A stretch of 64,000 nt of DNA from positions 37,170 to 101,169 of the IMG/VR virus record IMGVR_UViG_3300048597_000118. One strand, written 5' to 3'. Shown here piece by piece: positions 42,691 to 58,810 of this stretch (position 1 is its first letter; the number at the start of each line of letters is the position of its first letter). A program made the position numbers and the translations under genes. The notes under the pieces were generated by a model that ran no database searches, had not been told where the DNA came from, and saw only the letters and a list, made by a program, of their open reading frames with translations. This stretch comes from a virus.

Positions 42691-42776
42691 AACGTAACCC
42701 CCTCTATATGCCCCCTTGGTGTATAGAGGGGGTTATTTCATGTAAACTATAGCCGGTACTACCGGCAGGAGGCTAT

Positions 42777-43346: not shown

Positions 43347-43558
43347 GAAAGACTAGCGGTGCGTCTTTATCCGCACGCGGAAGCATAGATAAAGCTCTGA
43401 AATAACCCGCCCCACCGCTTCATGGTGGGTTATTTCATGGGTGTAACAACCGGTATGTAAAGCTAGCAGGCGCGCATATCTCTTTAGTAATCCACGCTCC
43501 CTAACAAGGTCTAGTCAACCGAGGTAAAGGAGAAGTCTGCTCCAAGGAGGTGATTTAC

Positions 43559-44149
43559 ATGACCTTCAAGTGCTTTTTAAGGACCGCAAGGGACCTTGAT
43601 TCCAGCTTGTTCATTAGTGATGGGCTGAAACTCAAGTATACCTTGGGTCCTGATAAAGGACGCCCCGCTGAAGAAAAAGCTCTACTACTAGTAGAAACTT
43701 TCTTCGACGGTGTAGAACAGGCTTTTCTCGCAAGGAAAGGCTATGTACTTGACGTCAGCTTCAAAGTTGACCTAGTTGTCAAGTTCTATGAGCAAAAAGT
43801 GAAGGATGAAGAGGGTAAAACCATCAAAGTCCTAAACAAAAGAGCTCTAGGCTTACAAGTCAAGTCTTCTGCGTTCGGGGCGCTAAAGCACGAAGACCTG
43901 CGGTTCTCAAGAGATTGGGAATTCGGGTTTCCAGAATGCTTAACTTTGGCTATGGGTACCAATATGGTTTCCCAATTAGTCAGGTTATTGCGGAGGAAGC
44001 CGAATAAGCGGTTCTTCGATGCTTTGGAACTAGCCCGTAACTTGGGTGGAGAAACTTGGCCAGAAGGCATACCGGGTATGAAAGACCTGGTTGTGCTGGG
44101 ATTGGCTAAGCCTACCAAACAAGGCTACGTGGTGCGTCCCACCCGTTAA
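43559..44149 (+). CDS. PD-(D/E)xK-type nuclease-like protein
   Basis: E..A...DVSFKVDLVV...LGLQVKSS motif; AAGGAGG RBS before ATG 43559. Confidence 0.6.
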   Translation: MTFKCFLRTARDLDSSLFISDGLKLKYTLGPDKGRPAEEKALLLVETFFDGVEQAFLARKGYVLDVSFKVDLVVKFYEQKVKDEEGKTIKVLNKRALGLQVKSSAFGALKHEDLRFSRDWEFGFPECLTLAMGTNMVSQLVRLLRRKPNKRFFDALELARNLGGETWPEGIPGMKDLVVLGLAKPTKQGYVVRPTR

Positions 44150-44281
44150 TGATATGACGAAATCATTAACAAATAAAAGCCCCCGTTTATGTAGATGAAT
44201 GAACGCTACAGACCCCCTCGCATAAGCTTGGGGGCTTTTTTCTCCGTGAAATTACCGGCGGTACAACCGCCAGGAGACAAC

Positions 44282-44572
44282 ATGGAAGGTTGTGTTAAGT
44301 ATTTAGTCTCTGCTTCTAAAAGCGTAAACCTAGAACTAGAGGGTGAAATTCCCCTAGATTTAGGGTATCGCTGGGAAGTGGGCGTGACAGATTGGGAAGT
44401 TCTATCTGAGTTAACCGGAGAGCCGGTTAAAGTTCTCCAAAACATCTTGTCAGAGATGACTGGAGACGATCAAGAGGCCGCATACGCCTGGTTAGACGCC
44501 GGGCAGACCTTTGACTGGTTATTAGGGGGTGATGTCCCCTACTTCGTGGAAAAAGAGCTGTATAAGCTCTAA
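44282..44572 (+). CDS. Small acidic early protein
   Basis: AGGAG RBS then ATG 44282; the track's longer start runs through the terminator/promoter. Confidence 0.65.
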   Translation: MEGCVKYLVSASKSVNLELEGEIPLDLGYRWEVGVTDWEVLSELTGEPVKVLQNILSEMTGDDQEAAYAWLDAGQTFDWLLGGDVPYFVEKELYKL

Positions 44573-44659
44573 TCCACCCCAATTAAGTAAAACAAAAAGC
44601 CCCCAAATTAATGGGGGCTTTTTTCTTGTTCTATCTGACCGGTACGACCGGTGAAGATT

Positions 44660-44830
44660 ATGCAAGTCATCAGCATTCGTATTTCTAAGCTATCTATCAC
44701 CTTGGGCGTAACACCTGAGGTAGTCACTCAGTGGTTATACGCGGAGTTTATTCGAGTAGAAGAACCTGCCCTTCGGGGTGGGGATAAAGAAGACGAATTT
44801 CCCACTAGTGGGAAATCTTCCCGCTGGTAA
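44660..44830 (+). CDS. Small early protein (56 aa)
   Basis: MQVISIRISKLSITLGVTPEVVTQWL..., directly after the promoter hairpin. Confidence 0.5.
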   Translation: MQVISIRISKLSITLGVTPEVVTQWLYAEFIRVEEPALRGGDKEDEFPTSGKSSRW

Positions 44831-44943
44831 TTAACTAAATAACCCTCAACAAGAGGAGGCAAGCTAATCAAACCTGGATTGAAAGCCAGTAAGGAATAGC
44901 GCGCCCCCGAGTTGGGGGTTTTTTACCGATTAGAATACCGCAG

Positions 44944-45759
44944 TTAAAAATTAAGTTTGGCTTTGTCTCCATACACGATTATGGCGTAGGAGTCATACAC
45001 TCTTGCAGCTTCTTCAGGAGTAGGATAAGTACCTATAGGGCGTGAGACTCCATTGACGCTAATCTGTGCTCTCCAACCTGATTTATGCTTAACGACGCCT
45101 CTATAAGTAGTATTGACAGGCTCGTCATCTACACTAAGCAGATTAGTACGTATAAAATTGTTTATCTGCTGAGTAGATAACCGTGCGCTGTCTAATCGTT
45201 GAAATAATCGTAGTGCTTTATCTACTTCTGTTTCAGCATATAAAAGGTTATCTACTGAGGGTATTGGGACAGACCGTACCTCTGAGACAGCTAAACACTC
45301 TGGAGCTTGTTTAATCTTACTAAATACAGAGCGGACTCCTATAGAACTAAATAAGGCATCAAGCCTCTTGGCACGCTCACTTGTCTCTCTTGCATCGTAG
45401 GCGTAGTACTTAACTAAAGAAGAAACTACTACCTCAGGCAGCATATAATTCTGATGGGTTCGTGTAGTGGCGGCCGTCGTAAGTTGTGGTTGGTTCTTAT
45501 AATCAAAGCCAGCTATAGGTTTTAACGAATCAGGTAAATCTTCAGGCCGCCAGTCAGGTAACCGCCGCAGCAAACCTTTTGCTAGCCCGTTTGCTTGTTT
45601 GCGCCCATCTATAAGAGATGAATGGTGCATATTAAGTAGACGGCTGGCTCCGCGTATAGAGCAGAAATAGTTGTTATCTCTTACTTCTAGCTCTGCATTA
45701 AGAAGCTGTCCTAATTCCGCATAGGACACTTCTGGTGGACATGGTGTTATTTGTGCCAT
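44944..45759 (-). CDS. AP2-domain DNA-binding protein
   Basis: C-terminal YRGV...WRAQI...IGTYPTPEEAARVYD..A...YGDKAKLNF is a canonical AP2 domain. Confidence 0.85.
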   Translation of the reverse strand: MAQITPCPPEVSYAELGQLLNAELEVRDNNYFCSIRGASRLLNMHHSSLIDGRKQANGLAKGLLRRLPDWRPEDLPDSLKPIAGFDYKNQPQLTTAATTRTHQNYMLPEVVVSSLVKYYAYDARETSERAKRLDALFSSIGVRSVFSKIKQAPECLAVSEVRSVPIPSVDNLLYAETEVDKALRLFQRLDSARLSTQQINNFIRTNLLSVDDEPVNTTYRGVVKHKSGWRAQISVNGVSRPIGTYPTPEEAARVYDSYAIIVYGDKAKLNF

Positions 45760-45997
45760 GATAGACCTTAGATATACAACAAGCTAATTATAACGTTATA
45801 AGCAGCACCAGCGGGCACTCCTATGTATACAAGGAGTGTTCTTTTTATGGCTATTTGAGCCCTATTTTTATGACCAAGACAACCGCTAGGTACTGAGTGC
45901 AAGACGGCTGGTAAGTATATGGTGCGACTCCATACGCCTTTATCAAATGGACTGTCAAGGTTATAAACATCGTCCCAGTACGACTGGGCAAAACAGA

Positions 45998-46519
45998 ATG
46001 TCTTTCTTAAACGCGATTAAAGAAGCTCTTTCCACCAAAACCGTAAAAGTAGAGGAAAAGGAGACTGCTAAAACCCGGACCCAAAAGTTCGTAGGTGAGT
46101 TCAAGGAGGTGGCTCAAACCCATCCCGCTGAACTACTTGATGCAGCCCAAAAACTGCATGGTATTGAAGTTATTAAAGACAAAGCCACAGAGAAGGCTGC
46201 CCAAATTGCTGAAGCTCGCAAAGCTAAAGAACGTTTGGTGTTTGCGGTAGACTCTGTCATAGAACAAATCGGTGTGGTAGCCGAAGAAATTCTGTGTCTT
46301 GAGGACGCCATTCTGGCTGATCAAGAGGCTATTAAGGTAGCCGAAGACGCATCGAAAGATGTGTTAGACGCTATGTCCAAAATGGACCCTGCTACTGTGT
46401 TAGCTGCTGCCCGTGCAGAACGAGCTAAAAAAGCTAACAAAAAGCAAGAGCCTGTAGTAAAACAAACTACTACCACTAAAGGCAATGGGCAACCAGCGCC
46501 TAAAGTGAACGTCGTCTAA
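45998..46519 (+). CDS. Coiled-coil early protein, paralogue A
   Basis: MSFLNAIK start shared with 46963; Ala/Lys/Glu-rich helices. Confidence 0.75.
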   Translation: MSFLNAIKEALSTKTVKVEEKETAKTRTQKFVGEFKEVAQTHPAELLDAAQKLHGIEVIKDKATEKAAQIAEARKAKERLVFAVDSVIEQIGVVAEEILCLEDAILADQEAIKVAEDASKDVLDAMSKMDPATVLAAARAERAKKANKKQEPVVKQTTTTKGNGQPAPKVNVV

Positions 46520-46596
46520 ATAAACAAGGGGAGTTTCCACCAGGATTCTCCCCTGTTTTATTGACGTTTACAGCCGGTACAACCGGGGAGGTCAAG

Positions 46597-46893
46597 GTGA
46601 GTTTCTCCAACCACCAACAGCGGTTTATCCGCAAAGCTCGGGCTACTGTCAAGTATGCCCAGTCCTTGGGGTGCCCCTCAGCCCCTATTGGACATGTCGA
46701 CTTCAGTAATGGGTCGGCGGGCTATGCAGTATGTAATCAGGTGATTCATTCCCTAACATACTGTCAAAACTACTTGACACGGGAGTTGACCCGTAACCCA
46801 ACCCTGGAGCAAGCTCAGGAGGTGCGTAAGTGCCTGAATGCTATAGCAACAACTATCAGACTCGGGACTAAATCAGTTTTGAGTCGAGATTAA
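46597..46893 (+). CDS. Hypothetical early protein
   Basis: GGAGG then in-frame GTG 46597 after the promoter hairpin. Confidence 0.6.
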   Translation: MSFSNHQQRFIRKARATVKYAQSLGCPSAPIGHVDFSNGSAGYAVCNQVIHSLTYCQNYLTRELTRNPTLEQAQEVRKCLNAIATTIRLGTKSVLSRD

Positions 46894-46962
46894 GAATTCC
46901 CGGGAATATTACTTCCCGGGTTTTTTTCTTGATCTATTTCACCGGTACGACCGGCTAGAATC

Positions 46963-47424
46963 ATGTCTTTTCTAAATGCTATCAAGTCTGTTTTAACAAC
47001 CGAAGCCCCCAAGGCTGAGGTTCAAGACAATGCATTGACTCGTACCCAAACTTTCGTGAAAGAGTTTTCGGACGTGGCTGACCACCACAAACCCGAACTT
47101 TCTGTAGCGGCGCAAAAGTTACACGGTATTGAAGTAATAAAAGACCGTGCATCTGCTAAAGCAAAACAAATCTCTGAGGACCGTAAGGCCAAAGAGCGTC
47201 TCGTGTTTGCTTTAGATAGTGTTGTAAAACAAATTGGTGTGGTTGCCGAAGAAGTTTTAACCCTAGAGGATGCTATTTTGGCAGACCAAGAGGCTGCCGC
47301 TATTGCTAAGGACGCGTCGAAAGACGTATTAGATACGTTAGCTAAACTTGATGCAGCCACCGTGCTTAAAGCTGCTCGCGCAGAACGGGCTAAAAAGGCG
47401 GCTGAAGCCAAAAAAGTCGTATAG
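46963..47424 (+). CDS. Coiled-coil early protein, paralogue B
   Basis: Shares AAQKLHGIEVIKD, RKAKERLVFA, QIGVVAEE, LEDAILADQEA and AARAERAKKA with paralogue A. Confidence 0.8.
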   Translation: MSFLNAIKSVLTTEAPKAEVQDNALTRTQTFVKEFSDVADHHKPELSVAAQKLHGIEVIKDRASAKAKQISEDRKAKERLVFALDSVVKQIGVVAEEVLTLEDAILADQEAAAIAKDASKDVLDTLAKLDAATVLKAARAERAKKAAEAKKVV

Positions 47425-47678
47425 ACTTTAATTAAATAGAGGGGTGTAAGCCCCCTCTTTTTATGTGGGTGACAACCGCTACTTCCTATCTCTGAGACCC
47501 TATGGGCAGACTCGTGTATCGAGCCAGGGTTGGAAGTAGCGCATTACCCACACGACAGTATTCAATACTGTCAGCCCGCCACAGCCGGAGTCAGACAACC
47601 GCACCTCGATACCCTTACCCCTACCTGGGCATATTTTTAACACCCTAACAGCCGATAAGCTCGGCAGGAGTTAAATTT

Positions 47679-47981
47679 ATGTTATTTGAAATGACTGTAG
47701 GCGCACATCAGACATACGAGAGATTCCAGACTAATCCTGGTGTCCCAGTAGTTATGTTGGTATTGGCCGAAGGGAGAGAGGTAAAAGTGCTTCTCTCCCA
47801 CTCTGGGACTTGGATTCGTCCAGGTAGGGAGAAAACAGTAGATTACTATGTCTGCTGCCATCCAGAGCGATTGGAGCCACGACTAAGGGAAAAACACCCC
47901 TTCCCAGACCATATAGGTCCTGTCCGTGGACGGGTATACGCGAAAGATAAAAAACTTTGGTGGGAGGTGACTCCCGCATAG
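47679..47981 (+). CDS. Hypothetical early protein
   Basis: AGGAG RBS; cassette context. Confidence 0.65.
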   Translation: MLFEMTVGAHQTYERFQTNPGVPVVMLVLAEGREVKVLLSHSGTWIRPGREKTVDYYVCCHPERLEPRLREKHPFPDHIGPVRGRVYAKDKKLWWEVTPA

Positions 47982-48228
47982 ATCAACTAACCACTTATGC
48001 CCCTCGGTATAGGTGGTTTTTTACTGTCATCTATTTTGCATAGTTACATAAAAGCAGAGGGCTGCATTCCTGACCCGGCAAGGGTTCTAAGGTTTTGATT
48101 AAGTGCTCACTCGAACAGCATTAAAGAAGCAAACTACATAGAAGGCTCTAATTTGAGCCCTATTTTATTGACTGTCTTTACCGGTAGTCATCACTATATC
48201 CGGCGTCTACAAGGCGTCGTGTTTTCGT

Positions 48229-48459
48229 ATGGACATTTTCGTTGTCTTGACTTTGTGGGTCTACGGACTTTTTGTCGTATTCTGCCTGAACGCTGTGGTA
48301 TCTGCCACAGCCCGGGCAATTTATTCCGTTTATGGGGTGACAGCCCAAGACATTCTCGTATGGGGGATTCAGAACCCCCTGTGGTTTTACAACCTGCTTG
48401 ATCAGGTAGCCCCCCAAGCTACCCAACAACACAATTACTTCGGAGGGTTGAATGACTAA
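48229..48459 (+). CDS. Small membrane protein
   Basis: Hydrophobic N-terminus (IFVVLTLWVYGLFVVFCLNAVV); downstream of the promoter copy at 48180. Confidence 0.55.
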   Translation: MDIFVVLTLWVYGLFVVFCLNAVVSATARAIYSVYGVTAQDILVWGIQNPLWFYNLLDQVAPQATQQHNYFGGLND

Positions 48460-48664
48460 TCCCAACACGGCGCCTAGCGGCGGCGCCTTACAAATAGTCG
48501 CTGGTAGTCCAGCTGGGAGGACTCAAATTAGTCCCAGTGGGTTCCAGGCAGGGTCCCATCAAAACCCTGGTCAAATCGTGTCCGTTGAGGGTGGAGCGCC
48601 TATGGCTCAGCTCTCGACGGGCAAAAGTTCACAGCCGGTCCTTACAAACAAAAACGAGGTAATT

Positions 48665-51600
48665 ATGAAAGTTAATCGACGCTTTGAATTAGGTATGTCT
48701 CTAAATAAAGAATGCCTTGATTATGTTGTCCATTTAAATCAAAAAGGCAATCCAAACTCGGAAAGCCAAAAACTGATCGATAAAGCCCGCGCTTTTCGTC
48801 GGGCAGCTCCCGTCCGGGCTGGTTTAAGTATCACATTCAGTAACACTCCTGTTGCTGGCGTTGTCATTAACCAGGAAGGCCGTGATGCTTCCGTTGCTTA
48901 TTGTGCTGCCCGCACCATTTACAAAGCTACCCGTCGGGTGGCTAATCGTGAGGCTTTCACTTTGATTAATATCCTGGGCTTGGTAACCCGCCGTCACGGC
49001 AAAGTTACTCGTAACTCTACCAAAGGATTTGGTACTGTTACTATCGTATCTTCCGGCACCTCTGCCGGTAAAACCGTGAACAACCGTAAAATCAACCAAC
49101 AGATTGCCCGTGCCCAGCGGGTATCTCGTCAGCGCCGTAATGGTCGGCGCTCCCAAGTTAGTAAAACAAGTCAGCAACGTGGTGCTGACCGTGCAGCCCG
49201 TGCTGCCAAACAGGGGGCAAAATTAGCCCGTCGTCGGGCTGCCCAGGCCTTCCTGGATGCTCAACGCAAGGCGGCAGTTATGGCTCTTGGGGTAACTCCC
49301 AAAGGGCATAAAGCCCCAGCTATGGTCCGTGGTGTACGGGTGAGCACCACCCCAATACCCACCACCCGGTCGGCTAAGTCCAGTGCCCTCCGTGGGGCAC
49401 ATGACGGTGTATATTACGTTAACGGCACTGAGGTGCCGGTGGTTAAAACAGTAGTTGCCCACCGTCAGGCAATTCTGCGTAAAGAGCGTAATGCTCTACC
49501 CTTAGCGGTACGTAACCGCCGTCTAGCGGCGGAAAACGGAACCCGGTTCCACCGGGATGCTGAGTTCGGCGCACGGCGCGCCTTGAGTCGGCACATTGTA
49601 GAAGTCCCTGTTATGCCTGTATGGCGTATGGTGCCCACTGCCCCAGCACCTGAGGTAACAGTGGCAGACTTTGAAGCCAAGGCTAAAGCCATTATGGCTG
49701 AGGCTAAAGTCAAATACGGCGCTGGTGACCTCCAGATGTCGTTAAATAGTAATTCTAGCGACCGCGATATAAAAAGCGGACTAGAAGCTCTACCGGTAGG
49801 AGACTCCATGGATAATATCGTAAAACTCGTCAGTGACCTTATGCCCACGGCTCAACCCGTAGCATCTATCCACGCTGACCACGCCTCTAATGACCGCTCC
49901 CTCGGCTATTACGTCAGCCTCTGCTGCGTATACGTCGACGGTTCCGGTCGTCAGACTATCAAAGGCAATATCAATTTGCCTATCCAAGCTCACTTCAGCA
50001 AGAAGCAATGGCCTGTCATCGGTGAACCTATGACCTCCGAAGACGCTAGCCTTAATGAGTCTTCTCTGCTTAAAGTGAGCGCCGAGCAACCTGTGCTCAA
50101 GTTCCGCACCAGTGCGGCCTACAACACAGGGAATTACACTCCTTGTGGTATGTGGCTATCTAAAGCCTGGGAGCGACCATATCCATTGAGGAAGAAATAC
50201 CCTGAAATCTCCCCCGAGATTTCGGTTATGCTGGATGGCAAAATGACGGTAGCTAACCTAGCCAAACCTGCTGAAGGCAAAGACAATATCACCCTTCAAC
50301 GGGCTATCGTCGACGCCCGTCTAGAGGTATGGAACGCCATCATGGGCGCCACCACTGAGGTCAAAGCCGGTGGCTGTACCGTTAAAGGCGGACTCGGTGC
50401 CAAATTACAACCCGGTCGTAACTGGGTGGTAGTTGTTGCTGATGTCACTGCGATCAACGGTGCCTCTAAAGAGAAAGGCGGCTTTGACATGTTGTTCAAC
50501 GTTACCCGTCCTGATGGTGTGGTATCCGTTGAGGGCTCCCTAGCCAAAGAAGACCTATACGGTCATGGTCGGGACTTTGCCTATGAGCGCATGGCAGCCC
50601 AGTCCATTGAGGTGCTCTATGTGCCTAACCTCAGTGATATTTATGCTGAGAAAGTGTTGGGTCCTTGGCACCCCAGCATCTCTGAAGGCTTAGCCCGTGG
50701 TTTCTACGGTGATTTACCTGAGTTAGCTGTAGACACCAAGAGCGGTAAGTTCAAGTATGCCGCTGCGTCTAAGGGCATAGCAGACCCCAAACGGGTTCGG
50801 CTATGTGACTTACTTGACTGGTCCTATGAGGCTTACGTCATGATTCAGTGCTGTCGGGAGAATCTACTGAATCAACGTGGACTACCCAGTGGTTCACGGG
50901 TAGTTACCAAACCAGCCGCACCGGTGGTCAAAGCAAAAGCAGCGCCCACTGTAACTACTGAGCCCACCAAACCTGTAGATGTAGCCCCTGTTATTGCTAG
51001 CCTCTTGGAAGCAGTGACCGCCGCACCTGCCCCTGCCCCGGCTCAACAAGTAGCCATAGTAGAACCAGAAGTAGAGGTTAAAGAACCTACTTCGCCACCC
51101 AAAGTAGAGGTGGTAGCAACGAAACTCCCTGAGCGCCCTGTAGTGCCTACCGTAGAACCTAACCTACAAGGTTACGCCGGTGCGCTCAGCCAATACCTTA
51201 ACCACATGGAAGGTATGTGGGTTAACCGCGAGTTAGCAAATATCACTGATATCAGTGTGTATTGCCAGGAACACGTCCAAGCGTGGGCTAACCTTGACAA
51301 GACTACAGGATTCAACGCTGAAGGTGTACAAGCCCGCACCAATGGTGTATCTGGTGCTTTTGGCGTTATTCGTTATCTAGCTGATGTCACCAAGACTGAA
51401 GGTGATTGTAAGCCTAACCTCAGTTTCTATGGCTTTGATTGGCAGCCCGAACACGTTATGAACGTGATTGCCATTCTCCGTAGCTATGAGTCTACCAATC
51501 ACCAGGATGATTTGTGCTACTTCAAACCTGAAGCTGGTGGGTATATCTTCAGTTTCCTTGGTAAAGAATTCGCCTGGATTCCTGAACTCAACGGTGTCAT

Positions 51601-54600
51601 CGACCTACCCCGTGGTCGGATGTTCAAGAACGTCGTTATGGCGTGCTACTCAGAAGAGCTCACAGAGAATGACCAACTAGTCAAAATCTACCGTGGGGCT
51701 CAAGCTATGTCCTCTATGGGTAGCTTCATGCGTTACCTATACATGGTGGTATTGCCTGTGATGGCTCATCTACCCGCTTCGGACGACTGGTCTGCCGTGG
51801 GTGCGAACCTTAACCAGTATCTCAATAAAGATGCGGGAGTCATGTTCCCCATGTCCTCTGACAATATCCTGTCAGAGAATGCTAACTTCCGTTGGGCTGA
51901 GTCCAATAGCTGGGCTCCCATGGGTCTAGACGTAGGCTCTACAATGCCTACTCCTGTAGTCAACGTAGATAAGAAATTCGCCTTAATTAACTGCTGGGGT
52001 ATCTACGCTGACAAACTCATCAAGGCATACGCAACTAACTATAAGCAGGCGAAGTTAACCAACGCTGAGTTTGCCGAGAACTTGTTGCCCGAAGCTATGA
52101 GTCAATTGGGTATTACCTGGTCGTTCAACAAGAACGTTGGGTATTCTATGCCTAACTTTGCTATTAACTGTCTTGTATTAGCTGAGCATGCCCCCGCTAT
52201 TTACGAACTAGTTAAAGCCCAGTTCGTCATAGATATGGGCGGTAGTAAAGCGGTAGATGAGTTCCTAGCCGCCTCCAAGTTCGAATCGTTAGATTTGTTC
52301 TTGCGCGGATGCGTAGTGAATAGTAACGGTAAAGTTGCTAAAGGAACTAAGCGTCAGCTATTGCGGGCACCTAACTCAGTGCAGTCTGGTAGCTATATCA
52401 ACTGTGATCGCAAACCTAAATTGGCTAAGATGCTAGCGGCTGGTCGTGGTGTCAAACCAGTTGATACCTTGTGGGCTGGTATGTTACCGGAGAACTTCTA
52501 CGCTGTAGGTGCCGGACACAAATTCAGCACTCAACCTGAGCCTATCACTGGCACAGCTATCCGTGTAGCTCTTGGTCTAACGGCTGTTGGTCCTGCTGGT
52601 GTAGTTGCTTGGATTGGTGGGCCTAATCAAATGCCCCATGGCTTTGGTTCTAATATTGAGCAGTCTAACTTTGAGATTCCCCAACGGGCTATCGAAGTTC
52701 AGCCTGGTGTTGGCTTTGGCGCCGATGATATCCAGCTAGTCCGCCCTGAACTGGCTGTAGACTTCCGTCAGCCTGAATGCGTGTTGGCTGATGTTGAATT
52801 GGTGACTGAAGTTCATCGGGTGCGGGGTATTGAATATTACTACTTCAAACCTCAAACTGCTGTGTATGTACATGGCAATGGTGGGTCTGTGGTGTGTAAT
52901 GTATTCACCAATGATGAACTTGCTCCTAGCAAACCGTTTGCCTATGAGAGTAATAACGGCGACGGCATCTTGGAATGGGTACGTGTCCACGTAGCACCAG
53001 AGATTACCGGTAAGAACCTAGAGGTGGAATTCAAAGTCACCACTATGGAACGGCAGGCTAAGATTCGTAGCTCTGTGGCTAAGGCTAACCTAATGCCCGT
53101 TAAGTCTTCGTTCTTGAAGTTGAACGGTGTGGCTGGGAAACTGGTTGACGCTGTATATCTGCAAGACGCCATGAAAATTGACGTTGATGGGTGTCTTATC
53201 AGTGTTATTGGTGTCACGTTGGTGCTTAACCCTGACTGTAATGACCCTGAGTTCTTAGCCATGGTTGAATTGGCTAAGGATATCAACGAGATGGTTGAAG
53301 GGCGCCGCCACTTGGATTACTTGGTAGAAGACCACGTGTCTATGGTTGCTCAACCTAAGTACACCGAACTGCAAACTCGGTTCTACAACTACTTCAAGCG
53401 TGAAAACGTTTGGACAATGTGGGAAGAACTAGAGCATGGTGACTTTGGCTATGCCATTGACCGCCTATACACCGATATGTCCAATGAAGGGTTGGACTCT
53501 TGGCGTGCTGTTACTGATGCCTTAGAAGCACGTGAGTTGGTAATGAACCTAGCGGCCGATGTAACTGATGAGTATACCTACAAATGCTTCACCAATGATA
53601 AAGACAATGTCTTTGTCTTGTTCATTAATGAAGCCGGGCGTGTAGCTAAAGTAGCTCAACGGTCCACTATGCTGGTTGGTCGCAATAATTGCCCCATCTA
53701 TGATGTGGTGCTCTATGAAGCGGCTACTACTCGCCAGGGTATCAACAATAATACCTCGGGTCAGATGGATGTCTGCATGCGTTCCTTGCGTGCTATGACT
53801 GATGCTTGGGGTATTGGTAATGATGGGTTGGCTAAAGACCTTATCCGTCGCCAAGGTATTTCTGGTAAGACTAACGCTATGTGGCGTGCCAAAATGCTAC
53901 ACCTTAGCGCCCATTGTGGTCTCAGCAAAGCCATTGATGGTCGTCAAGTCATCAAACTAGGCGAATGGAAAGAGGCAGATAAAGGGCAAGCCACCTGGGT
54001 ACCTAACTCTGAAGTAGTGGCTACCATCAAGTCCATCTTGGGCAATGCTGATGTGTCTAACGTGTCTAACTTTGGTGGGCTATGTGAAGCCCTTAAAGGT
54101 TATATCTTCACTGTTGATGCGTCTCGTAAAGAGTATAAAGTAGACGAGGAGAGCGGTGAAGTCTATGCCGTGTCTAAGTCTATTGAGGTATGGACTCCGT
54201 TCTTGTATTACCTCAACGGACGTAGTGCTGAAGATAATAGCCATAGCACCGCCAGTGGTCTATTCCAGGCTTACTTGGCCAAAGCATTATCCATTAACCC
54301 TGACGCCCGTAGTCTTGGCATCATTGCCAATCAACTATGTGGTCGTATGGACTCCTGGGCATCTTCTGAAGGTGTCCGTAAGTTTATCTCTGGTGGTGAG
54401 GTATTCGGCGGTAAGGTTATCGCTATGCCTAATCTACCTACTGGGGTGATGTTACTCTATGAGGGTGATGACCAATGGGCTAATGCCCGCCGCGTGGCTA
54501 AACATTATGGCTTAGACCTACGCAATGTACCCACTTGGGCTGACTATAAAGCCTTTGGTGAGGCGGTATGGGATATGCCTGAGCGTACCGAGGCGTTTAA

Positions 54601-57600
54601 CCATCTCACTCGTAGTCCTATTAAAGACGGTCCGGTTCAACGAGTACTTCGCATGCCCAAGTCCGTTGAAGCCTACAAGGATACGTTCTATTGCTTCAGC
54701 AATCCTTGGGTATATAACCCATTGAGTAGCAAGAACGTCTTGGCTAATCCATATCCCTATACCATTGGCGTATCTGTTATCGCCATGACTGGTGTTACTA
54801 AGGGTGACTCTGACGGTGATGGTGTGAGTGCTACGTTCTTAGTTAGCAATGTACCCGGCCTTCGTGGTTTGGTTACTGCTGAAGATAAAGCGTGGGAAAG
54901 TTGTGATAAATGTGCCGGGTTACCCGGGGCACAAGCTCGCCTGGAAGTATATCTAGGTGACCACTTGAGTGCCCCTAGTTTGGCTAAGAAAGCTAATATC
55001 TTCTTCCGTAAAGGTATGTTAGCTGTGTCCTTCAAAGACGGTGGTGTTAGTGGTAAGCATTTAGTATTAGCCGAGACCTATAACACAACCAACGTTCGCT
55101 CTTTGATTCTGCAAACTATGCAGGTCGGGGTGAGCTATAAAGTTTACCGTTTGACCGAGGCTATCACGGATATTCTCAATGGTCTTGTCAAAGGTGGTGT
55201 GTTTAAAGCAGCTGGTTTAGAAGTACCTGAGATGTTCAAGCCCTTCGTCGGTCCTCAATCCTACTATGCAGTAACTGCCTGTGCAGATATCTATGAGTAT
55301 GTATTGGGTGCTGTTGATGCGTTGGGTTGGCAACTCTGGGGTATGCTTAAATCCGTAATGGAAGCCAAGTTTGCTCCTATGTGGCACGCTCCGTTAATCC
55401 ACATAGACAAGACAGACGGCAATACAGTGGACCATAATGCTGAGGCTGAAGCCAAAGCAGTTCTGTTTCGTCAGAGTAAAGTAGCTGAGCTGACTGGAAT
55501 CCTCGGTAAGGCTGGTGTAAATACCAGTCAAGCCGACGCCATGGCTACTGCTTTCTGGTTGGCATCTTATGCTAACGGAACTGTTAAGCAACAGTCTATG
55601 TTCATGTTTGACGTTCAACGTAGTGACCGTCGGCTTGCACAGTTCATTATTGCTGCCGCCATGTTGGTCACCGAAGCAGGTCGTGCTAAATGGCATGGCT
55701 TCAATCATGGTCCTCTCAATAGCACTGCTTTGGCTAGTGACGAGAAGGTAGCTAACCATAAGAAGATGACTACAGTGACCTTAGACTACCTGACTAAAGG
55801 TGTAGCCGCCCATGATGTATGGGTTAACGCTGTATCTGAAAGCCATTGTTTGCAGTTGCTTATGGATATGGCTGACCCTGAGACTTTAGGTGACTTGGTA
55901 GTTGGTCCCCCGGCTAACACTGCTATTGATTACTTTGTCAATGCAGACTTGGTTGCCCATTATGAGTCTCAGTTGGCTGCTCGTGTTGGTGATGTCAACA
56001 TGGTCGAGATTAAAGAAACCGTGGTTGATGTGGAAGTATGTCTTGATATCTTTGTCACTGACGAAGACGAGGAGTTCGACTTAGTTGACCCTGATGCAGA
56101 TATATATGACGATTATCAACCGACTTATGACGAGGAGGAATATATGGAAATGCTCGCTAACCAGGCGATGTTGGCTCAAATGTTGGCTGCCCCCACTGCC
56201 GTAATTGAACCCACGGATAATACTCCAACTCCTCACTGTGTTGATGAGGATATGTATATCCCCGAGGAACAGACTGAAGAAGACCGGTTGGCTACTCAAC
56301 AAGTTATGGCTCAGCTGATGACTAAACCTCAGGCTGCCCCTGCTCCTGTAGTAATGCCTGCTCCTACTGAAGACCAAATCTTCTTAGCCAAACAGGCTGC
56401 TGTAGAAGCTGAGATTAGTGACCTAGAAACCCGTTTGGTTAAAGCCCAAGAGCTATTAGCTAAACAAGAAGCTCAGGCAAAAGCCCTGCGGAAGCTAGAA
56501 GACAAAAAGGCTAAATTATCGGCTAAACTAGCTGACGTTGTTGCTAAACTCAGCCCTGAGTACCTCGCCATGTTAGAAGATAATACCCAACCAGAAGAAG
56601 ACGAGGATAATGGCGGTGGCAATGTTAAGCCTGAGCCTGATGCCCCCAAACCTCCTTCTGATGACCATGGTCAGAATCTAAGCATCGATGCAGAAGTTCA
56701 GAAGGTACGCCATGATTTAGAACAGTTGGCTGCCCGTGCTCGGGATGGTGAGGTGATTGGTCGTCCTAGCCCTGAGCCTGCGCCTTCTGATGAGGATATG
56801 TATATCCCTGAAGAAGGTAATCCTGCGGAGAATATGGCGGCCTTTGCCGCCGCCGCTGCCACTTCCGTTACTGCCACTACTAACGAAGTAGTAACGGAGC
56901 CCACCTGGGCTGACTTTGTCCAAAGCATCAAATGGGAGCGTGGTGACGTATGTGAAGTCGAATACGAAGACGGCACCATCGGTTGGATGTTAGGCCAAGA
57001 GGTTATCCCTAACATAGTCAGCTCTGATTATGTAGATGGTCGCTTGTGGTTCTACCATGAGAAGCCCAACGTTCTCTTTATTGAAGATGGCTTGACCATC
57101 AATGACGTACCCGACGTTCAAGGATGGGAACTAGACCTATGTGATGACATTCGGTACGTTACTGGGTATGTAGGAGGAACTATTACTACCACCCCAGAAG
57201 CTAAAAAGGAAACTAGTGAAGTAAAATCACCGGATGACATCGTGGCTACACTAATAGAAAGTTACGCAAAAAAGTCTCAGCCCAAAAACCTTATTGAGGC
57301 TAAGACTAAAGCTCGCTCCCTTCCATGTCCACCTATAGACGATGAAGGTGCCACCGACTGCCAGAAACGCTTCTTCGAAGCCGCCTGCACCGGTGATAAC
57401 ATCTTCTTATCTGGGGAAGCTGGCACAGGGAAAACCTACGCCCTAGAGTCAATGATTAACCATTGGTTAGAACTGGGAGATAAAGTCATCGTTACCGCCA
57501 CCACTGGTCGCGCTGCTATGAACATGGGCGCCCGCTTTGATATCGAAGACTTAGCTGGCTACGGTACCTTTAACTCTGTGTTGGGTCTGGGCATCGGTTT

Positions 57601-58810
57601 TGGTGAGAAAGATGCTGAAGCCATGACTCCCTACGCTTGGAGCCAACGCATGATTAGTCGTGGTCAGAGCAACGATGAGCTAGAAGTGATGCTTAAAGGA
57701 AGTAACCAAGACCAACGAGTCCACTTCGTCTTAGACGAGGTATCTATGTTGGATGCCCGCATGCTTTGGGTTATTTGGAATATCCTTTATTACCACAACC
57801 CCTGCATTCAAGTTATCCTAGCTGGCGACGGTGACCAACTCAAGGTAATCGGTAAAGGTGCTCGGGACTTCTGGCAACGTCCTTACCTTGAAGGATGTAA
57901 CGGAACTTTAGAGACTATCATCGACAAGTTTCGCTGCATTAACCTGAAGACCAACGTAAGGCAAGCTGATGACCCTGAGTTGGCTGCTGCGTTGAAACAC
58001 CTTTCTGAAACCAATGAGATTACTGGGGTGTTACTTGAACGATTCCGTTTATGTGCAGAAGAAGGTCTAAAGCCCAGCGACGACTTAAATACGACTTATA
58101 TTCGTTATAACAACGTATCTGTTGAGCGGATTAACCGTCGTATGACCCGCGCCATGGGTACAGAAACCCGTGTATATAAAGCACAAGTAGTGGGCAATAA
58201 TGGTCCCGTCACTGTTAATAATGACCGTTATCCTGGTTGGGTATACGCCTTTAGCCCTATTGCTCCTGTGATGGAGTTTGCGGTAGGTATGCCTGTTAAG
58301 CTCCGCAAGAATCGTAAAAAAGATGGTGTGTTAGAAGCTTCTAATGGTAGCCGTGGGTTCATTACCAAGCTAGGTAAGGAGCATGTATGGGTTGAATTTG
58401 AAGATGGTAAGGAGTTAAAGATTAACTTCGAACGATTCGAAGGACCCCATGTAAACGGTAATAGCGTCGGCGCTTTCTACCAATTACCTATCCATCCTGA
58501 CTTCGCTACCACGGGGCATAGTGTCCAAGGTATGACTATCACTAACGAGGGTGTCATCTCTGTTAGTCAGGAATGGAAGTGCAAAGATAACCATAAGCAA
58601 TTTATCTTTGAAGAAGATGGCGAGCATAAGGTTTATAAGGTTGCTTTGAATGACGCCCAGTGGTTATTGGTTGCGTGTTCACGGTTCACTAAGGCTTCGG
58701 ACATTTACTTCCAGTATGATGGTCCCGAAGATTTGCATTGGCTATTCCAAGCACAAGGTAATAAAGATTTGAGCTACCGTGAGTGGCTTGCTTCTAAAGC
58801 TAAGCAATAG
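48665..58810 (+). CDS. Giant protein: putative single-chain two-barrel RNA polymerase fused to a C-terminal RecD/Pif1-like SF1B helicase
   Basis: AKIRSSVAKANL (~53057), HLTRSP (RSP at 54611), KGDSDGDG (DSDGD at 54806-54820). Helicase motifs GEAGTGKT (57413), ATTGRAA, LDEVSML, GDGDQL, NVRQ, ATTGHSVQGMT, VACSR. Start taken at ATG 48665 after GAGGT; the ORF is open from 48452. Confidence 0.75.
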   Translation: MKVNRRFELGMSLNKECLDYVVHLNQKGNPNSESQKLIDKARAFRRAAPVRAGLSITFSNTPVAGVVINQEGRDASVAYCAARTIYKATRRVANREAFTLINILGLVTRRHGKVTRNSTKGFGTVTIVSSGTSAGKTVNNRKINQQIARAQRVSRQRRNGRRSQVSKTSQQRGADRAARAAKQGAKLARRRAAQAFLDAQRKAAVMALGVTPKGHKAPAMVRGVRVSTTPIPTTRSAKSSALRGAHDGVYYVNGTEVPVVKTVVAHRQAILRKERNALPLAVRNRRLAAENGTRFHRDAEFGARRALSRHIVEVPVMPVWRMVPTAPAPEVTVADFEAKAKAIMAEAKVKYGAGDLQMSLNSNSSDRDIKSGLEALPVGDSMDNIVKLVSDLMPTAQPVASIHADHASNDRSLGYYVSLCCVYVDGSGRQTIKGNINLPIQAHFSKKQWPVIGEPMTSEDASLNESSLLKVSAEQPVLKFRTSAAYNTGNYTPCGMWLSKAWERPYPLRKKYPEISPEISVMLDGKMTVANLAKPAEGKDNITLQRAIVDARLEVWNAIMGATTEVKAGGCTVKGGLGAKLQPGRNWVVVVADVTAINGASKEKGGFDMLFNVTRPDGVVSVEGSLAKEDLYGHGRDFAYERMAAQSIEVLYVPNLSDIYAEKVLGPWHPSISEGLARGFYGDLPELAVDTKSGKFKYAAASKGIADPKRVRLCDLLDWSYEAYVMIQCCRENLLNQRGLPSGSRVVTKPAAPVVKAKAAPTVTTEPTKPVDVAPVIASLLEAVTAAPAPAPAQQVAIVEPEVEVKEPTSPPKVEVVATKLPERPVVPTVEPNLQGYAGALSQYLNHMEGMWVNRELANITDISVYCQEHVQAWANLDKTTGFNAEGVQARTNGVSGAFGVIRYLADVTKTEGDCKPNLSFYGFDWQPEHVMNVIAILRSYESTNHQDDLCYFKPEAGGYIFSFLGKEFAWIPELNGVIDLPRGRMFKNVVMACYSEELTENDQLVKIYRGAQAMSSMGSFMRYLYMVVLPVMAHLPASDDWSAVGANLNQYLNKDAGVMFPMSSDNILSENANFRWAESNSWAPMGLDVGSTMPTPVVNVDKKFALINCWGIYADKLIKAYATNYKQAKLTNAEFAENLLPEAMSQLGITWSFNKNVGYSMPNFAINCLVLAEHAPAIYELVKAQFVIDMGGSKAVDEFLAASKFESLDLFLRGCVVNSNGKVAKGTKRQLLRAPNSVQSGSYINCDRKPKLAKMLAAGRGVKPVDTLWAGMLPENFYAVGAGHKFSTQPEPITGTAIRVALGLTAVGPAGVVAWIGGPNQMPHGFGSNIEQSNFEIPQRAIEVQPGVGFGADDIQLVRPELAVDFRQPECVLADVELVTEVHRVRGIEYYYFKPQTAVYVHGNGGSVVCNVFTNDELAPSKPFAYESNNGDGILEWVRVHVAPEITGKNLEVEFKVTTMERQAKIRSSVAKANLMPVKSSFLKLNGVAGKLVDAVYLQDAMKIDVDGCLISVIGVTLVLNPDCNDPEFLAMVELAKDINEMVEGRRHLDYLVEDHVSMVAQPKYTELQTRFYNYFKRENVWTMWEELEHGDFGYAIDRLYTDMSNEGLDSWRAVTDALEARELVMNLAADVTDEYTYKCFTNDKDNVFVLFINEAGRVAKVAQRSTMLVGRNNCPIYDVVLYEAATTRQGINNNTSGQMDVCMRSLRAMTDAWGIGNDGLAKDLIRRQGISGKTNAMWRAKMLHLSAHCGLSKAIDGRQVIKLGEWKEADKGQATWVPNSEVVATIKSILGNADVSNVSNFGGLCEALKGYIFTVDASRKEYKVDEESGEVYAVSKSIEVWTPFLYYLNGRSAEDNSHSTASGLFQAYLAKALSINPDARSLGIIANQLCGRMDSWASSEGVRKFISGGEVFGGKVIAMPNLPTGVMLLYEGDDQWANARRVAKHYGLDLRNVPTWADYKAFGEAVWDMPERTEAFNHLTRSPIKDGPVQRVLRMPKSVEAYKDTFYCFSNPWVYNPLSSKNVLANPYPYTIGVSVIAMTGVTKGDSDGDGVSATFLVSNVPGLRGLVTAEDKAWESCDKCAGLPGAQARLEVYLGDHLSAPSLAKKANIFFRKGMLAVSFKDGGVSGKHLVLAETYNTTNVRSLILQTMQVGVSYKVYRLTEAITDILNGLVKGGVFKAAGLEVPEMFKPFVGPQSYYAVTACADIYEYVLGAVDALGWQLWGMLKSVMEAKFAPMWHAPLIHIDKTDGNTVDHNAEAEAKAVLFRQSKVAELTGILGKAGVNTSQADAMATAFWLASYANGTVKQQSMFMFDVQRSDRRLAQFIIAAAMLVTEAGRAKWHGFNHGPLNSTALASDEKVANHKKMTTVTLDYLTKGVAAHDVWVNAVSESHCLQLLMDMADPETLGDLVVGPPANTAIDYFVNADLVAHYESQLAARVGDVNMVEIKETVVDVEVCLDIFVTDEDEEFDLVDPDADIYDDYQPTYDEEEYMEMLANQAMLAQMLAAPTAVIEPTDNTPTPHCVDEDMYIPEEQTEEDRLATQQVMAQLMTKPQAAPAPVVMPAPTEDQIFLAKQAAVEAEISDLETRLVKAQELLAKQEAQAKALRKLEDKKAKLSAKLADVVAKLSPEYLAMLEDNTQPEEDEDNGGGNVKPEPDAPKPPSDDHGQNLSIDAEVQKVRHDLEQLAARARDGEVIGRPSPEPAPSDEDMYIPEEGNPAENMAAFAAAAATSVTATTNEVVTEPTWADFVQSIKWERGDVCEVEYEDGTIGWMLGQEVIPNIVSSDYVDGRLWFYHEKPNVLFIEDGLTINDVPDVQGWELDLCDDIRYVTGYVGGTITTTPEAKKETSEVKSPDDIVATLIESYAKKSQPKNLIEAKTKARSLPCPPIDDEGATDCQKRFFEAACTGDNIFLSGEAGTGKTYALESMINHWLELGDKVIVTATTGRAAMNMGARFDIEDLAGYGTFNSVLGLGIGFGEKDAEAMTPYAWSQRMISRGQSNDELEVMLKGSNQDQRVHFVLDEVSMLDARMLWVIWNILYYHNPCIQVILAGDGDQLKVIGKGARDFWQRPYLEGCNGTLETIIDKFRCINLKTNVRQADDPELAAALKHLSETNEITGVLLERFRLCAEEGLKPSDDLNTTYIRYNNVSVERINRRMTRAMGTETRVYKAQVVGNNGPVTVNNDRYPGWVYAFSPIAPVMEFAVGMPVKLRKNRKKDGVLEASNGSRGFITKLGKEHVWVEFEDGKELKINFERFEGPHVNGNSVGAFYQLPIHPDFATTGHSVQGMTITNEGVISVSQEWKCKDNHKQFIFEEDGEHKVYKVALNDAQWLLVACSRFTKASDIYFQYDGPEDLHWLFQAQGNKDLSYREWLASKAKQ

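Follow-up and report, generated by a model that had tools for sequence, protein, structure and literature searches.

A predicted two-barrel RNA polymerase fused to an SF1B helicase in an uncultured cyanophage-like virus

A 64,000-nucleotide stretch of viral DNA (the window; IMG/VR record IMGVR_UViG_3300048597_000118, positions 37,170 to 101,169) encodes a giant protein, P0001, in which a predicted two-barrel polymerase core is fused to a RecD/Pif1/Dda-like SF1B helicase, an architecture that had been proposed from the DNA letters and that is now supported by a structural model, sequence motifs, and profile matches. The reading of its function that we favor, at about even confidence and from a modeled core, is that of a phage transcription enzyme, in which a non-virion two-barrel DNA-dependent RNA polymerase (RNAP) would be tethered to a template-opening SF1B helicase. 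No description of this RNAP–helicase fusion was found in the literature or in domain libraries.

Gene, linkers, and helicase domain

ORF analysis reveals a single stop-free frame of 3,452 codons for P0001 (Table 1). The original prediction had the ORF begin at 48665; its frame is real, but 48665 corresponds to Met72 and is not the likely start. The gene probably begins at 48452 instead, as the 71 residues ahead of Met72 are kept in the 84%-identical orthologue L002 and partly in P0005, a GGAGG sits 5 nt upstream of 48452, and the ATG at this position overlaps the stop of a conserved upstream ORF of 76 residues. This overlap suggests translational coupling of the two genes. Comparison of P0001 with L002 yields dN/dS values of 0.05–0.27 over the full length and 0.05–0.10 in the core and helicase, with all indels in frame and confined to linkers; purifying selection acts over the whole gene.

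Table 1. Positions of P0001, its domains and motifs, and neighboring elements in the window
Feature	Position	Strand	Basis and remarks
Promoter-like cassette TG-N9-RCCGST	48169..48185	+	After terminator-like hairpin and T-tract, ~280 nt upstream of start
Small upstream ORF, 76 aa	48229..48459	+	Hydrophobic N-terminus; stop overlaps P0001 ATG; conserved in L002
Predicted RNA polymerase–helicase fusion gene P0001	48452..58810	+	3,452 aa, one open frame
N-terminal conserved domain (~aa 80–190), then Arg/Lys-rich segment (~aa 190–400)	48452..49651	+	Homologous N-termini in 10 family representatives
Domain(s) at aa 400–830	49649..50941	+	phmmer matches in 6 representatives, closer relatives only
Pro/Ala-rich linker, aa ~830–900	50939..51151	+	32 P+A per 100 aa; small in-frame indels vs L002
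β N-terminal-half-like (lobe/protrusion) region, aa ~900–1350	51149..52501	+	AF2 model 2 and VIA, weak
Predicted β-like barrel module, aa ~1350–1925	52499..54226	+	Model residues 1–576 align with Pol I A135 746–1064, Z 6.0
KxRxxxxK basic loop (K1537, R1539, K1544; aa 1537–1544)	53060..53083	+	Conserved 24/24
Predicted β′-like module, catalytic double-psi barrel and helical C-terminal part, aa ~1980–2475	54389..55876	+	VIA
RxP (R2054, S2055, P2056)	54611..54619	+	R and P conserved 25/25
DxDGD metal-binding signature (D2119, D2121, D2123)	54806..54820	+	Conserved 25/25, 24/25, 24/25
Acidic, Pro/Ala-rich, coiled-coil-like linkers, aa ~2520–2830	56009..56941	+	Up to 28 D+E per 100 aa
Small Trp-rich domain ahead of helicase, aa ~2830–2955, variable	56939..57316	+	Two weak family matches only
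SF1B helicase, Dda/RecD2/Pif1-like, aa 2960–3452	57329..58810	+	Motifs intact; Pfam, PHROG, PDB, motifs

In terms of composition, the regions flanking the core are as originally described: the N-terminus is rich in Arg and Lys (aa 100–400; 25 K+R per 100 residues in its basic segment), and both the Pro/Ala linker and the acidic linkers (aa ~2500–2900) are present. The orthologue L002 lacks a 183-residue block of the Arg/Lys-rich segment and an 82-residue block of the Trp-rich domain. The acidic linker region shows the lowest identity to L002 of the entire gene and several indels, and the last residues of the model of the core (1165–1191 of AF2 model 1, aa ~2514–2540) have pLDDT values below 30. 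The region spanning aa 400–830 has no match in Pfam or PHROG. A glycoside-hydrolase-15-like assignment for this region was rejected, as its best ESM Atlas score of 0.89 is sub-threshold and few features are shared; we take this match as noise.

The C-terminal domain contains the full SF1B motif set that had been claimed for it, with motifs I, Ia, II, III, IV, V, and VI in order (Walker A GEAGTGKT at residue 2988, DEVSM at 3095, GDGDQ at 3125, NVRQ at 3168, HSVQG at 3356, and VACSR at 3407, with TATTGRAA also among them). Pfam families AAA_19 (6.5e-15), AAA_30 (7.8e-15), and PIF1 (2.9e-6) match above their cut-offs, PHROG 325 “Dda-like helicase” matches with an E-value of 1e-43, and a search of PDB sequences returns Pif1 chains. 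The closest proteins from cultured phages are stand-alone helicases of ~25% identity. A 5′–3′ polarity is suggested solely by family membership.

Predicted fold and conserved residues of the polymerase core

The center of P0001 models as a double-psi-barrel polymerase, in line with the original prediction, and Foldseek and VIA agree on this point for an AF2 model of aa 1350–2540 (model 1; pLDDT 82.4, pTM 0.80). All matches listed by Foldseek are RNAP β′ or β chains. In the VIA search of 48,161 chains, the best match is QDE-1 (Z 10.1–10.2 over 408–422 residues, with model residues 16–1134 covered in the 408-residue alignment), followed by the largest subunits of Pol I, Pol II, the archaeal enzyme, and Pol IV (Z 8.3–9.0), the phage proteins P74-26 gp62 (Z 8.2, 343 residues aligned) and P23-45 gp96 (Z 8.1, 267 residues aligned), RDR2 (Z 7.1), and PolD DP2 (Z 5.8). 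A second look found 140 chains with Z of at least 8, and the best 50 of these 140 are all QDE-1 or largest RNAP subunits. Z values of 8–10 are middling by VIA's own scale, and the weight of this model-based evidence lies in the uniformity of the match list and its coincidence with the motifs, not in Z alone.

The model divides into two barrel modules. Model residues 1–576, the β-like part, fall inside the ranges aligned to QDE-1, P74-26 gp62, and P23-45 gp96, and Foldseek matches this module to β and Rpb2 chains with probabilities of 0.9–1.0. Model residues 630–1124, the β′-like part, align with E. coli β′ 344–1355 and with Rpb1 ~340–1458 at Z 8.4–9.1, and isolated DPBB domains (designed DPBB and CDC48-N) match model residues 634–800 at Z 7–8.4. 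Upstream of the barrels, a second AF2 model covering aa 880–1400 (pLDDT 74.5, pTM 0.77) has just 118 VIA matches with Z of at least 2, of which the top seven are all second-largest RNAP subunits; Pol III C128 and Xanthomonas β lead (both Z 5.0), and AR9, plastid PEP, Pol IV, vaccinia, and phiKZ are matched further down at Z 3.7–4.2. Foldseek returned no match for this model at E ≤ 0.001. The resemblance of aa 880–1400 to the N-terminal half of RNAP β subunits is thus weak but consistent in the predicted structure. Within this β-lobe-like region, R1054, D1137, K1294, K1297, K1300, and R1301 are invariant in the family.

The polymerase motifs quoted in the original prediction are all in place (AKIRSSVAKAN at residue 1536, TRSP at 2053, and GDSDGDG at 2118), and the RxP-to-DxDGD spacing is the 65 codons given there, counted from R2054 to D2119. 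Conservation was assessed in a family alignment of 25 sequences, with relatives 20–84% identical (Table 1). G2118 and G2122 are conserved in 25/25, and the signature reads DFDGD or DYDGD in distant members. Taken at the level of sequence, the motifs are not due to chance.

Eight residues are invariant in all two-barrel RNAPs, among them R738 and K743 of QDE-1 (PMC2919709). Seven of the eight can be placed in P0001: K/R1537–1539, K1544, R2054, P2056, D2119, D2121, and D2123. The spacing of 5 between R and K in the KxRxxxxK loop is the same as that of R738/K743 in QDE-1, and R2054 and P2056 are the counterparts of Rpb1 R446 and P448 (PMC2919709). The location of the KxRxxxxK loop in the β-like barrel fits the structural alignment ranges, a fit of range and motif rather than a residue-level superposition. 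The eighth invariant is an Asp in the β-type barrel (Rpb2 D837, QDE-1 D709; PMC2919709), for which the family-invariant acidic residues D1137, D1572, and D1577 are possible candidates.

At the sequence level, the core gave no match in Pfam, PHROGs, or PDB sequences, and a core profile (alignment A4) gave none among all PDB sequences, including 8F5M and 8H2M/N. Likewise, 50,697 GenBank phage records contained no match to the core by nucleotide and protein searches including tblastn, and no sequence homology of the core to gp64, gp62, or gp96 was detected by PDB profile or tblastn. A Pfam scan of P0001 found no RNAP family, and PF00623 gave no hit in the contigs G000 or G001. The distant family member P0018 matches GenBank phage records with its helicase part only; P0018 and P0009 had no match in IMG/VR, and none of 185,579 species genomes yielded a relative in a close-pattern scan. 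Profile A4 likewise had no HMM-level match in Ma-LMM01 (AB231700). Because no sequence-level link to a known RNAP was found, the proposed homology of the core to RNAPs is argued from predicted structure and motifs.

Phage lineage, genomic setting, and likely role of the fusion protein

The fusion is no assembly artifact, as the two parts form one ORF on each of four independent contigs of 101–217 kb: G000, G001 (3,186 aa), G002 (4,239 aa), and G003 (4,182 aa). These contigs also have in common a capsid protein (identity 95, 74, and 47%), whose matches in cultured phages are only Microcystis and Microcoleus phages at ~30% identity, which makes cyanobacteria candidate hosts. The source is an uncultured large cyanophage-like virus, and the P0001 family is seen in metagenomes only. 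A metagenome search for the fusion found the C-terminal helicase in 20 of 27 family cluster representatives; the seven representatives without it are all shorter and may be truncated.

The head/tail block of the phage lies at 1–15.5 kb, and P0001 lies outside it, preceded by an array of small genes with terminators and the same TG-N9-RCCGST cassette that stands before P0001. This motif has 18 matches in the window versus 5.5 expected, 12 of them on the + strand within 41991–48185, and L002 carries it ~270 nt upstream of the orthologue start; the cassette may act as a promoter. Such an array resembles a region of early or middle genes. As P0001 lies outside the structural module and shares the cassette with the small genes, its product would be expressed after infection together with them, which suggests a non-virion enzyme, the least certain step in the reading that we favor.

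Alternatively, the same enzyme could travel inside the virion and enter the cell along with the DNA, as do N4 vRNAP, crAss-like gp66, and P23-45 gp96; the helicase/translocase would then assist in drawing in or opening the genome as it arrives, and transcription of the first genes would fall to the polymerase. We consider this unlikely. The size, the basic N-terminus, and the phage precedents (N4, crAss-like, P23-45 gp96) would nonetheless suit a packaged enzyme no less well. The protein is giant, with linkers that are long and flexible, and a strongly basic segment comes after its conserved N-terminal domain; two further giants of the phage are of the injected-protein type, and to our knowledge, the giant phage RNAPs characterized in this size class are all virion proteins. 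The position of the gene outside the head/tail block and behind the early/middle-looking array speaks against packaging, as does the fact that the 84%-identical relative can dispense with the basic segment. The two-RNAP programme of the original prediction would depend on the giant protein encoded at 18195–33716, which has a conserved DYDGD; alignment of profile A1 with its DYDGD region by hhalign gave a probability of 7%, and hence no detectable similarity of the two cores.

G000 and G001 yielded no RNAP gene of the T7 type or the multisubunit type. G001, a near-complete relative, has a sigma-70-family gene at its end, so the host enzyme may carry out some of the transcription.

Also encoded in G001 are a DnaG-type primase (PHROG 47, 7e-25) and, separate from the fusion, a helicase (PHROG 62, 2e-33); relatives further have PolA, a ligase, and an ATPase that resembles clamp loaders. 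The gene for PolA is intact in G003 but divided into two parts in G002 and into three in G001. A first scan of G001 had shown no PolA, PolB, DnaE, or DnaB above cut-off, the PolA being found later in pieces. With PolA present in G001, G002, and G003, the two-barrel enzyme as the sole replicase of the phage was rejected. Given that PolA, a primase, and a further helicase are encoded by relatives, P0001 more likely serves transcription, and the role in priming replication that the original prediction had also raised is less necessary.

In such a role, P0001 would be a replication primase-helicase with an architecture like that of T7 gp4 or of AEP/SF3-type primase-helicase fusions, making RNA primers or origin-priming or -activating transcripts on the strand exposed by its own 5′–3′ helicase. 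The order polymerase–linker–helicase is indeed the classical primase-helicase layout, the SF1B helicases Dda and Pif1 work at replication forks, and PolD, whose DP2 is among the structural matches, is an example of the two-barrel fold used in replication. We nevertheless regard this as very unlikely, as G001 already has its own primase and helicase, the fusion gene is not within the replication block (111–153 kb in G001), and a core of ~1,600 residues with β-lobe-like and β′ C-terminal modules far exceeds what priming needs.

A PolD-like DNA polymerase, a QDE-1/RDR-like RNA-templated polymerase making dsRNA, or a catalytically dead scaffold is highly implausible. In favor of such readings, the top structural match is QDE-1, with both DNA- and RNA-templated activity, and PolD DP2 is among the matches as well. 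Against them, the lineage encodes a PolA of its own, matches to the largest subunit of DNA-dependent RNAPs equal those to QDE-1 in strength and run on through the β′ C-terminal part, the region upstream of the barrels resembles β lobes, of which we know none in RNAi polymerases, and the strict conservation of catalytic residues together with the low dN/dS of the core argues against a dead enzyme.

Proposed mechanism, comparison with known systems, and significance

In the transcription enzyme that we favor, a single chain would carry a β-like and then a β′-like barrel, flexible acidic linkers, and a 5′–3′ SF1B DNA helicase. The polymerase would make RNA on phage DNA, and the helicase would open the duplex in cis, hand the single-stranded template to the polymerase, and replace the sigma-type promoter-melting factors that are missing in such minimal polymerases. 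Precedents for a need of this kind exist, as crAss-like gp66 transcribes single-stranded or denatured DNA and hardly any duplex, and QDE-1 requires the helicase QDE-3 and RPA, in trans (bioRxiv 10.1101/2020.03.07.982082).

Among phage enzymes, the non-virion P23-45 gp64/P74-26 gp62 and the tape-measure-fused virion RNAP gp96 are, like P0001, single-chain two-barrel polymerases that are undetectable by sequence (PMC10770324; PDB 8F5M, 8H2M/N). Both gp62 and gp96 match the P0001 model across both barrels, and gp96 is a precedent for a two-barrel core embedded in a giant multidomain protein. These Thermus phage RNAPs have a minimal core of ~600–800 residues and no helicase, whereas the P0001 core comprises ~1,600 residues with a β-lobe-like region. 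φ14:2 gp66 and SPβ YonO are also single-polypeptide two-barrel phage RNAPs with DxDxD, but they are without a helicase domain, and gp66 is a virion protein whose gene lies in a structural block; its preference for single-stranded DNA is the gap that a fused helicase would fill. Both gp66 and YonO are absent from the structural match lists and the sequence-search results for P0001.

Of the eukaryotic enzymes, QDE-1 shares DxDGD and the R-x4-K spacing with P0001, but QDE-1 and RDR2 act in RNA silencing, with a separate RecQ-type helicase and no β-lobe-like module (PDB 7Y7P, 5FSW, 2J7N, 7W84). With respect to the multisubunit enzymes (β/β′, Rpb2/Rpb1), the alignment of the predicted β′-like module starts at the catalytic barrel and extends almost to the C-terminus, and subunits of the split phage RNAPs of AR9 and phiKZ match upstream parts of P0001. 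In contrast to these enzymes, P0001 is one polypeptide, much compressed, with no Pfam RNAP domain; no other RNAP subunits and no sigma-binding flap were identified. The helicase has its complete motif set in common with Dda, RecD2, and Pif1, which are stand-alone proteins of 400–550 residues, whereas it forms the C-terminal domain of a far larger chain. T7 gp4 is an architectural analogue only: it too places an RNA-polymerizing domain N-terminal to a 5′–3′ DNA helicase, but its folds, DnaG/TOPRIM and hexameric SF4, are unrelated to a two-barrel core and a monomer-type SF1B helicase.

In YonO, crAss gp66, and P23-45 gp64/gp96, the enzyme of cellular transcription has its simplest relatives, and how such phage RNAPs open the duplex without sigma- or TFIIB-like factors is a standing question. 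With a helicase welded to the polymerase by selection, the idea that a helicase supplies the template becomes testable in one protein. The P0001 family would be a deep, fast-evolving RNAP family missed by every sequence profile, which bears on the evolution of two-barrel polymerases and on genome annotation, where members are now called “hypothetical” or even “DnaC”.

A bolder version of the transcription reading, which we judge distinctly unlikely, is that P0001 transcribes as a self-contained machine that needs no separate factors: its SF1B helicase, in place of a sigma-like factor or DNA supercoiling, would open the template for a cell-type RNAP. The same molecule might then start leading-strand DNA synthesis from its own transcripts and, by analogy with POLRMT and Twinkle or T7 RNAP and gp4, which are separate proteins, would be a fused transcription-replication coupler. 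If this were true, the P0001 family would represent a third solution to promoter opening among two-barrel RNAPs and a living example of the polymerase–helicase coupling that has been proposed for early replicators.

The polymerase–helicase frame and its relatives

The source record, a 101-kb linear IMG/VR virus record with an estimated completeness of 68% whose right-hand 64 kb form the window, encodes tail sheath, major head protein, protease, and portal in a structural block of the contractile-tail type, and has two giant ORFs besides the polymerase–helicase gene. The latter is a single frame of 3,452 codons without interruption. The original prediction began it at 48665, which is Met72 of this frame; we take 48452 as the start because the closest relative shares the 71 residues before Met72 and a 39%-identical relative shares part of them, GGAGG lies 5 nt upstream of this ATG, and the ATG overlaps (ATGACTAA) the stop of a 76-aa ORF. 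That ORF, conserved and with a hydrophobic N-terminus, may encode a small membrane protein whose translation is coupled to that of the polymerase–helicase. All motifs quoted in the prediction lie exactly where they had been placed.

The full SF1B helicase motif set expected at the C-terminus is present: residues 2960–3452 hold motifs I, Ia, II, III, IV, V, and VI, all of them intact, and these recur across the family. This region has Pfam AAA_19, AAA_30, and PIF1 matches, all above cut-off, matches PHROG 325 ("Dda-like helicase") at 1e-43, and matches Pif1 structures in the PDB at the sequence level. Its closest cultured-phage proteins are stand-alone helicases of ~25% identity. Residues 1–2950 are without any Pfam, PHROG, or PDB sequence match.

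The fusion is not an assembly artefact, the concern raised with the original prediction, and is under selection. The closest orthologue, at locus L002 of the 205.5-kb record G001 (84% identity), is likewise one ORF; all indels between the two are in frame and confined to linkers or the basic segment, and dN/dS in a codon comparison is 0.05–0.10 in the core and helicase and 0.13–0.27 elsewhere. Two blocks are cleanly missing from this orthologue and are thus dispensable or modular. Two further IMG/VR records came from a degenerate-pattern scan, G002 (216.6 kb, 96% complete) and G003 (155.9 kb), with ORFs of 4,239 and 4,182 aa, respectively, each with DxDGD and a C-terminal Walker A. All four records share a capsid protein, and the identity of the polymerase core to that of the window drops much faster (84, 27, and 22%) than that of the capsid protein (95, 74, and 47%), whose cultured-phage relatives are only from Microcystis and Microcoleus phages (~30%).

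Coordinates of features in the window and in related records
Feature	Location	Strand	Details
Polymerase–helicase gene	window 48452-58810	+	3,452 aa
Upstream ORF	window 48229-48459	+	76 aa
Block missing from L002 orthologue	window 49025-49651		183 aa of Arg/Lys-rich N-terminal segment, aa ~190-400
Block missing from L002 orthologue	window ~56930-57180		82 aa before helicase, aa ~2828-2910
TG-N9-RCCGST copies	window 41991-48185	+	12 of the window's 18
TG-N9-RCCGST copies	L002, 774-6255	+	11
AP2-domain/NUMOD-like ORF	window 44944-45759	-	homing-endonuclease type
Other giant	window 18195-33716	+	GLGDYDGDSY context at aa 3493
Orthologue of other giant	G001:C1:35305-51330	-	5,341 aa; context at aa 3645
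Third giant ORF	G001:C1:88772-107116	+	6,114 aa
Third giant ORF, window's own record	G000:C1:1-13978	-	>4,659 aa, runs off contig end
SF2 Rad25-like helicase	G001:C1:131439-133013	-	ResIII, Helicase_C, ERCC3/RAD25 C-terminal matches
PolA pieces (L015, L016, L017)	G001:C1:145300-147400	-	
PolA ORFs (L026, L027)	G002:C1:59545-62426		481 and 362 aa
Intein, ribonucleotide reductase small subunit	G001:C1:113703-116165	-	
Intein, ATP-dependent DNA ligase	G001:C1:151496-153766	-	
TnpB (OrfB_IS605/Cas12f-like TNB) gene	G001:C1:190626-191930	+	
Sigma-70 region-2 match (L018)	G001:C1:343-531	-	E 5e-16; ORF extends to contig end

Conserved residues and predicted fold of the core

An exhaustive HMMER search with residues 1350–2540 identified 27 proteins among 1.84 billion cluster representatives, mostly of 2,000–4,500 aa, the shorter ones resembling fragments. 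The C-terminal SF1B helicase is present in 20 of these representatives; the remaining 7, all shorter, could be truncated. The family profile detected no relative in phage Ma-LMM01. Members looked up are all metagenomic, their proteins nameless or misnamed "DnaC". DxDGD occurs at the homologous place in almost all full-length members, written DFDGD or DYDGD in distant ones, as in cellular β′ and QDE-1. A 25-sequence family alignment reveals conservation of R2054, P2056, G2118, D2119, and G2122 (25/25), D2121 and D2123 (24/25), and K1537, R1539, and K1544 (24/24). An invariant K-x-x-K-G-x-K-R-x-x-L at residues 1294–1304 may resemble the Rpb2 fork-loop-2 region. Two-barrel RNAPs have eight residues in common without exception: one barrel supplies R-x-P and DxDxD, and the other, β-type barrel supplies two basic residues and an Asp (Ruprich-Robert and Thuriaux, PMC2919709). 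Seven have counterparts among the conserved residues of the family, in which the R-x4-K spacing equals that of QDE-1 R738/K743 (PMC2919709); candidates for the eighth, the Asp, are D1137, D1572, and D1577, all family-invariant.

The AlphaFold2 model of residues 1350–2540, built from the family alignment, is confident (mean pLDDT 82.4, pTM 0.80). Among the Foldseek matches listed against the PDB, all are RNAP β′ (E from 3e-4) or β/Rpb2 (probability 0.9–1.0). In a second, Foldseek-independent search of 48,161 representative chains, QDE-1 ranked first (Z 10.1, rmsd 5.5, 408 residues aligned, model residues 16–1134), and by the tool's own warning Z 8–10 is middling for a model of such size. Also matched were the largest subunits of Pol I, Pol II, archaeal RNAP, and Pol IV (Z 8.3–9.0), the single-chain enzymes P74-26 gp62 (Z 8.2, 343 residues aligned, model residues 6–1129) and P23-45 gp96 (Z 8.1), isolated double-psi barrels (Z 7–8.4, model residues 634–800), maize RDR2 (Z 7.1), Pol I A135 residues 746–1064 (Z 6.0, model residues 1–576), and PolD DP2 (Z 5.8). 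A repeat search gave Z ≥ 8 for 140 chains, the 50 entries listed being all QDE-1 or largest RNAP subunits; model residues 630–1124 correspond to E. coli β′ 344–1355. We accept a two-barrel polymerase fold for the model, in keeping with the double-psi-barrel polymerase predicted for the central region, on three grounds: the match list is uniform, both halves of the model align with the single-chain enzymes, and the invariant motifs agree with the structural assignment.

A second AlphaFold2 model, of residues 880–1400 (pLDDT 74.5), had no Foldseek match, and a wide structure search gave Z ≥ 2 for 118 chains only. Each of the top seven is the N-terminal half of a second-largest RNAP subunit: Pol III C128 and Xanthomonas β lead with Z 5.0, followed by AR9, plastid PEP, Pol IV, vaccinia, and phiKZ. 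This modeled likeness is weak but consistent. From the matches of both models, the polymerase core appears to span residues ~900–2475, β-like then β′-like, and may retain lobe-like parts. To our knowledge, QDE-1-type enzymes are without such parts.

Replication genes and transcription context

G001 encodes two further helicases, one of PHROG 62 and one of the SF2 Rad25-like type, together with a DnaG-type primase (PHROG 47, 7e-25), a clamp-loader-like ATPase, an intein-containing ligase, a ribonucleotide reductase, and a PD-(D/E)XK nuclease; PolB, DnaE, and DnaB had no match above cut-off in this record. In phiKZ-like jumbo phages, a Rad25-like helicase co-occurs with phage RNAP (Iyer and Aravind, PMC7824862). 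Absence of PolA from G001 was considered and rejected, at least three PolA pieces being present, with motifs A, B, and C in separate frames; the motif B piece reads ...NFAK up to its stop, and ~1 kb separates it from motif C (...QVHD). PolA is two ORFs in G002 and intact in G003 (851 aa). The breaks, within conserved motifs, look like insertion of an intron or homing element rather than decay. Because PolA and the G001 replication genes are present, the phage has a conventional replisome.

The intein of the G001 ligase contains a LAGLIDADG endonuclease. Two mobile-element genes were also noted, the TnpB gene of G001 and the AP2-domain/NUMOD-like ORF of the window, which lies within the small-gene array.

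Searches of the window's record and G001 for T7-type and multisubunit RNAP genes gave no match. The sigma-70-family gene of G001 could be phage-encoded or host flank, the IMG/VR class of this record being "provirus". The polymerase–helicase gene sits outside the structural block, and upstream of it are a terminator-like hairpin and, on the side of the gene, a TG-N9-RCCGST element. Copies of this element are strongly enriched (18 observed vs 5.5 expected in the window; 11 vs 2.4 in L002), mostly directly follow terminator-like hairpins, and are spread through the 6 kb of small genes that lead up to the polymerase–helicase gene; the last, ~270–280 nt upstream of the gene, is conserved in both phages. 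The other giant and its orthologue have identical GLGDYDGDSY contexts, and its DYDGD region has no similarity to the polymerase–helicase family profile (hhalign probability 7%). DxDGD is absent from the third giant ORF.

Proposed function

In full-text literature searches, no paper turned up that describes a helicase fusion of a two-barrel RNAP, and a Thermus-phage RNAP paper nowhere mentions helicases (PMC10770324). Single-chain phage two-barrel RNAPs are known already; this polymerase family, its enlarged core, and its conserved helicase fusion appear undescribed so far.

For crAss-like gp66, denatured or single-stranded DNA is a good template and duplex DNA a poor one, and QDE-1 requires the helicase QDE-3 and RPA (bioRxiv 10.1101/2020.03.07.982082). 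By analogy, this template preference and this helicase need suggest the job of the helicase, which is separate in QDE-1, the best structural match, whereas it is fused in the window protein. From these facts, the conventional replisome, the gene position, and the upstream element, we therefore favor, with roughly even confidence, a phage transcriptase that brings its own helicase. With the gene outside the structural block, packaging of the same enzyme in the virion is a rather doubtful alternative; beside a conventional replisome, a primase–helicase is improbable. Very improbable are a polymerase with a role outside transcription, whether DNA- or RNA-templated, and a dead scaffold. In the favored reading, the polymerase–helicase would be expressed after infection, its fused helicase would open duplex DNA, and the opened DNA would be passed as template to the polymerase core.
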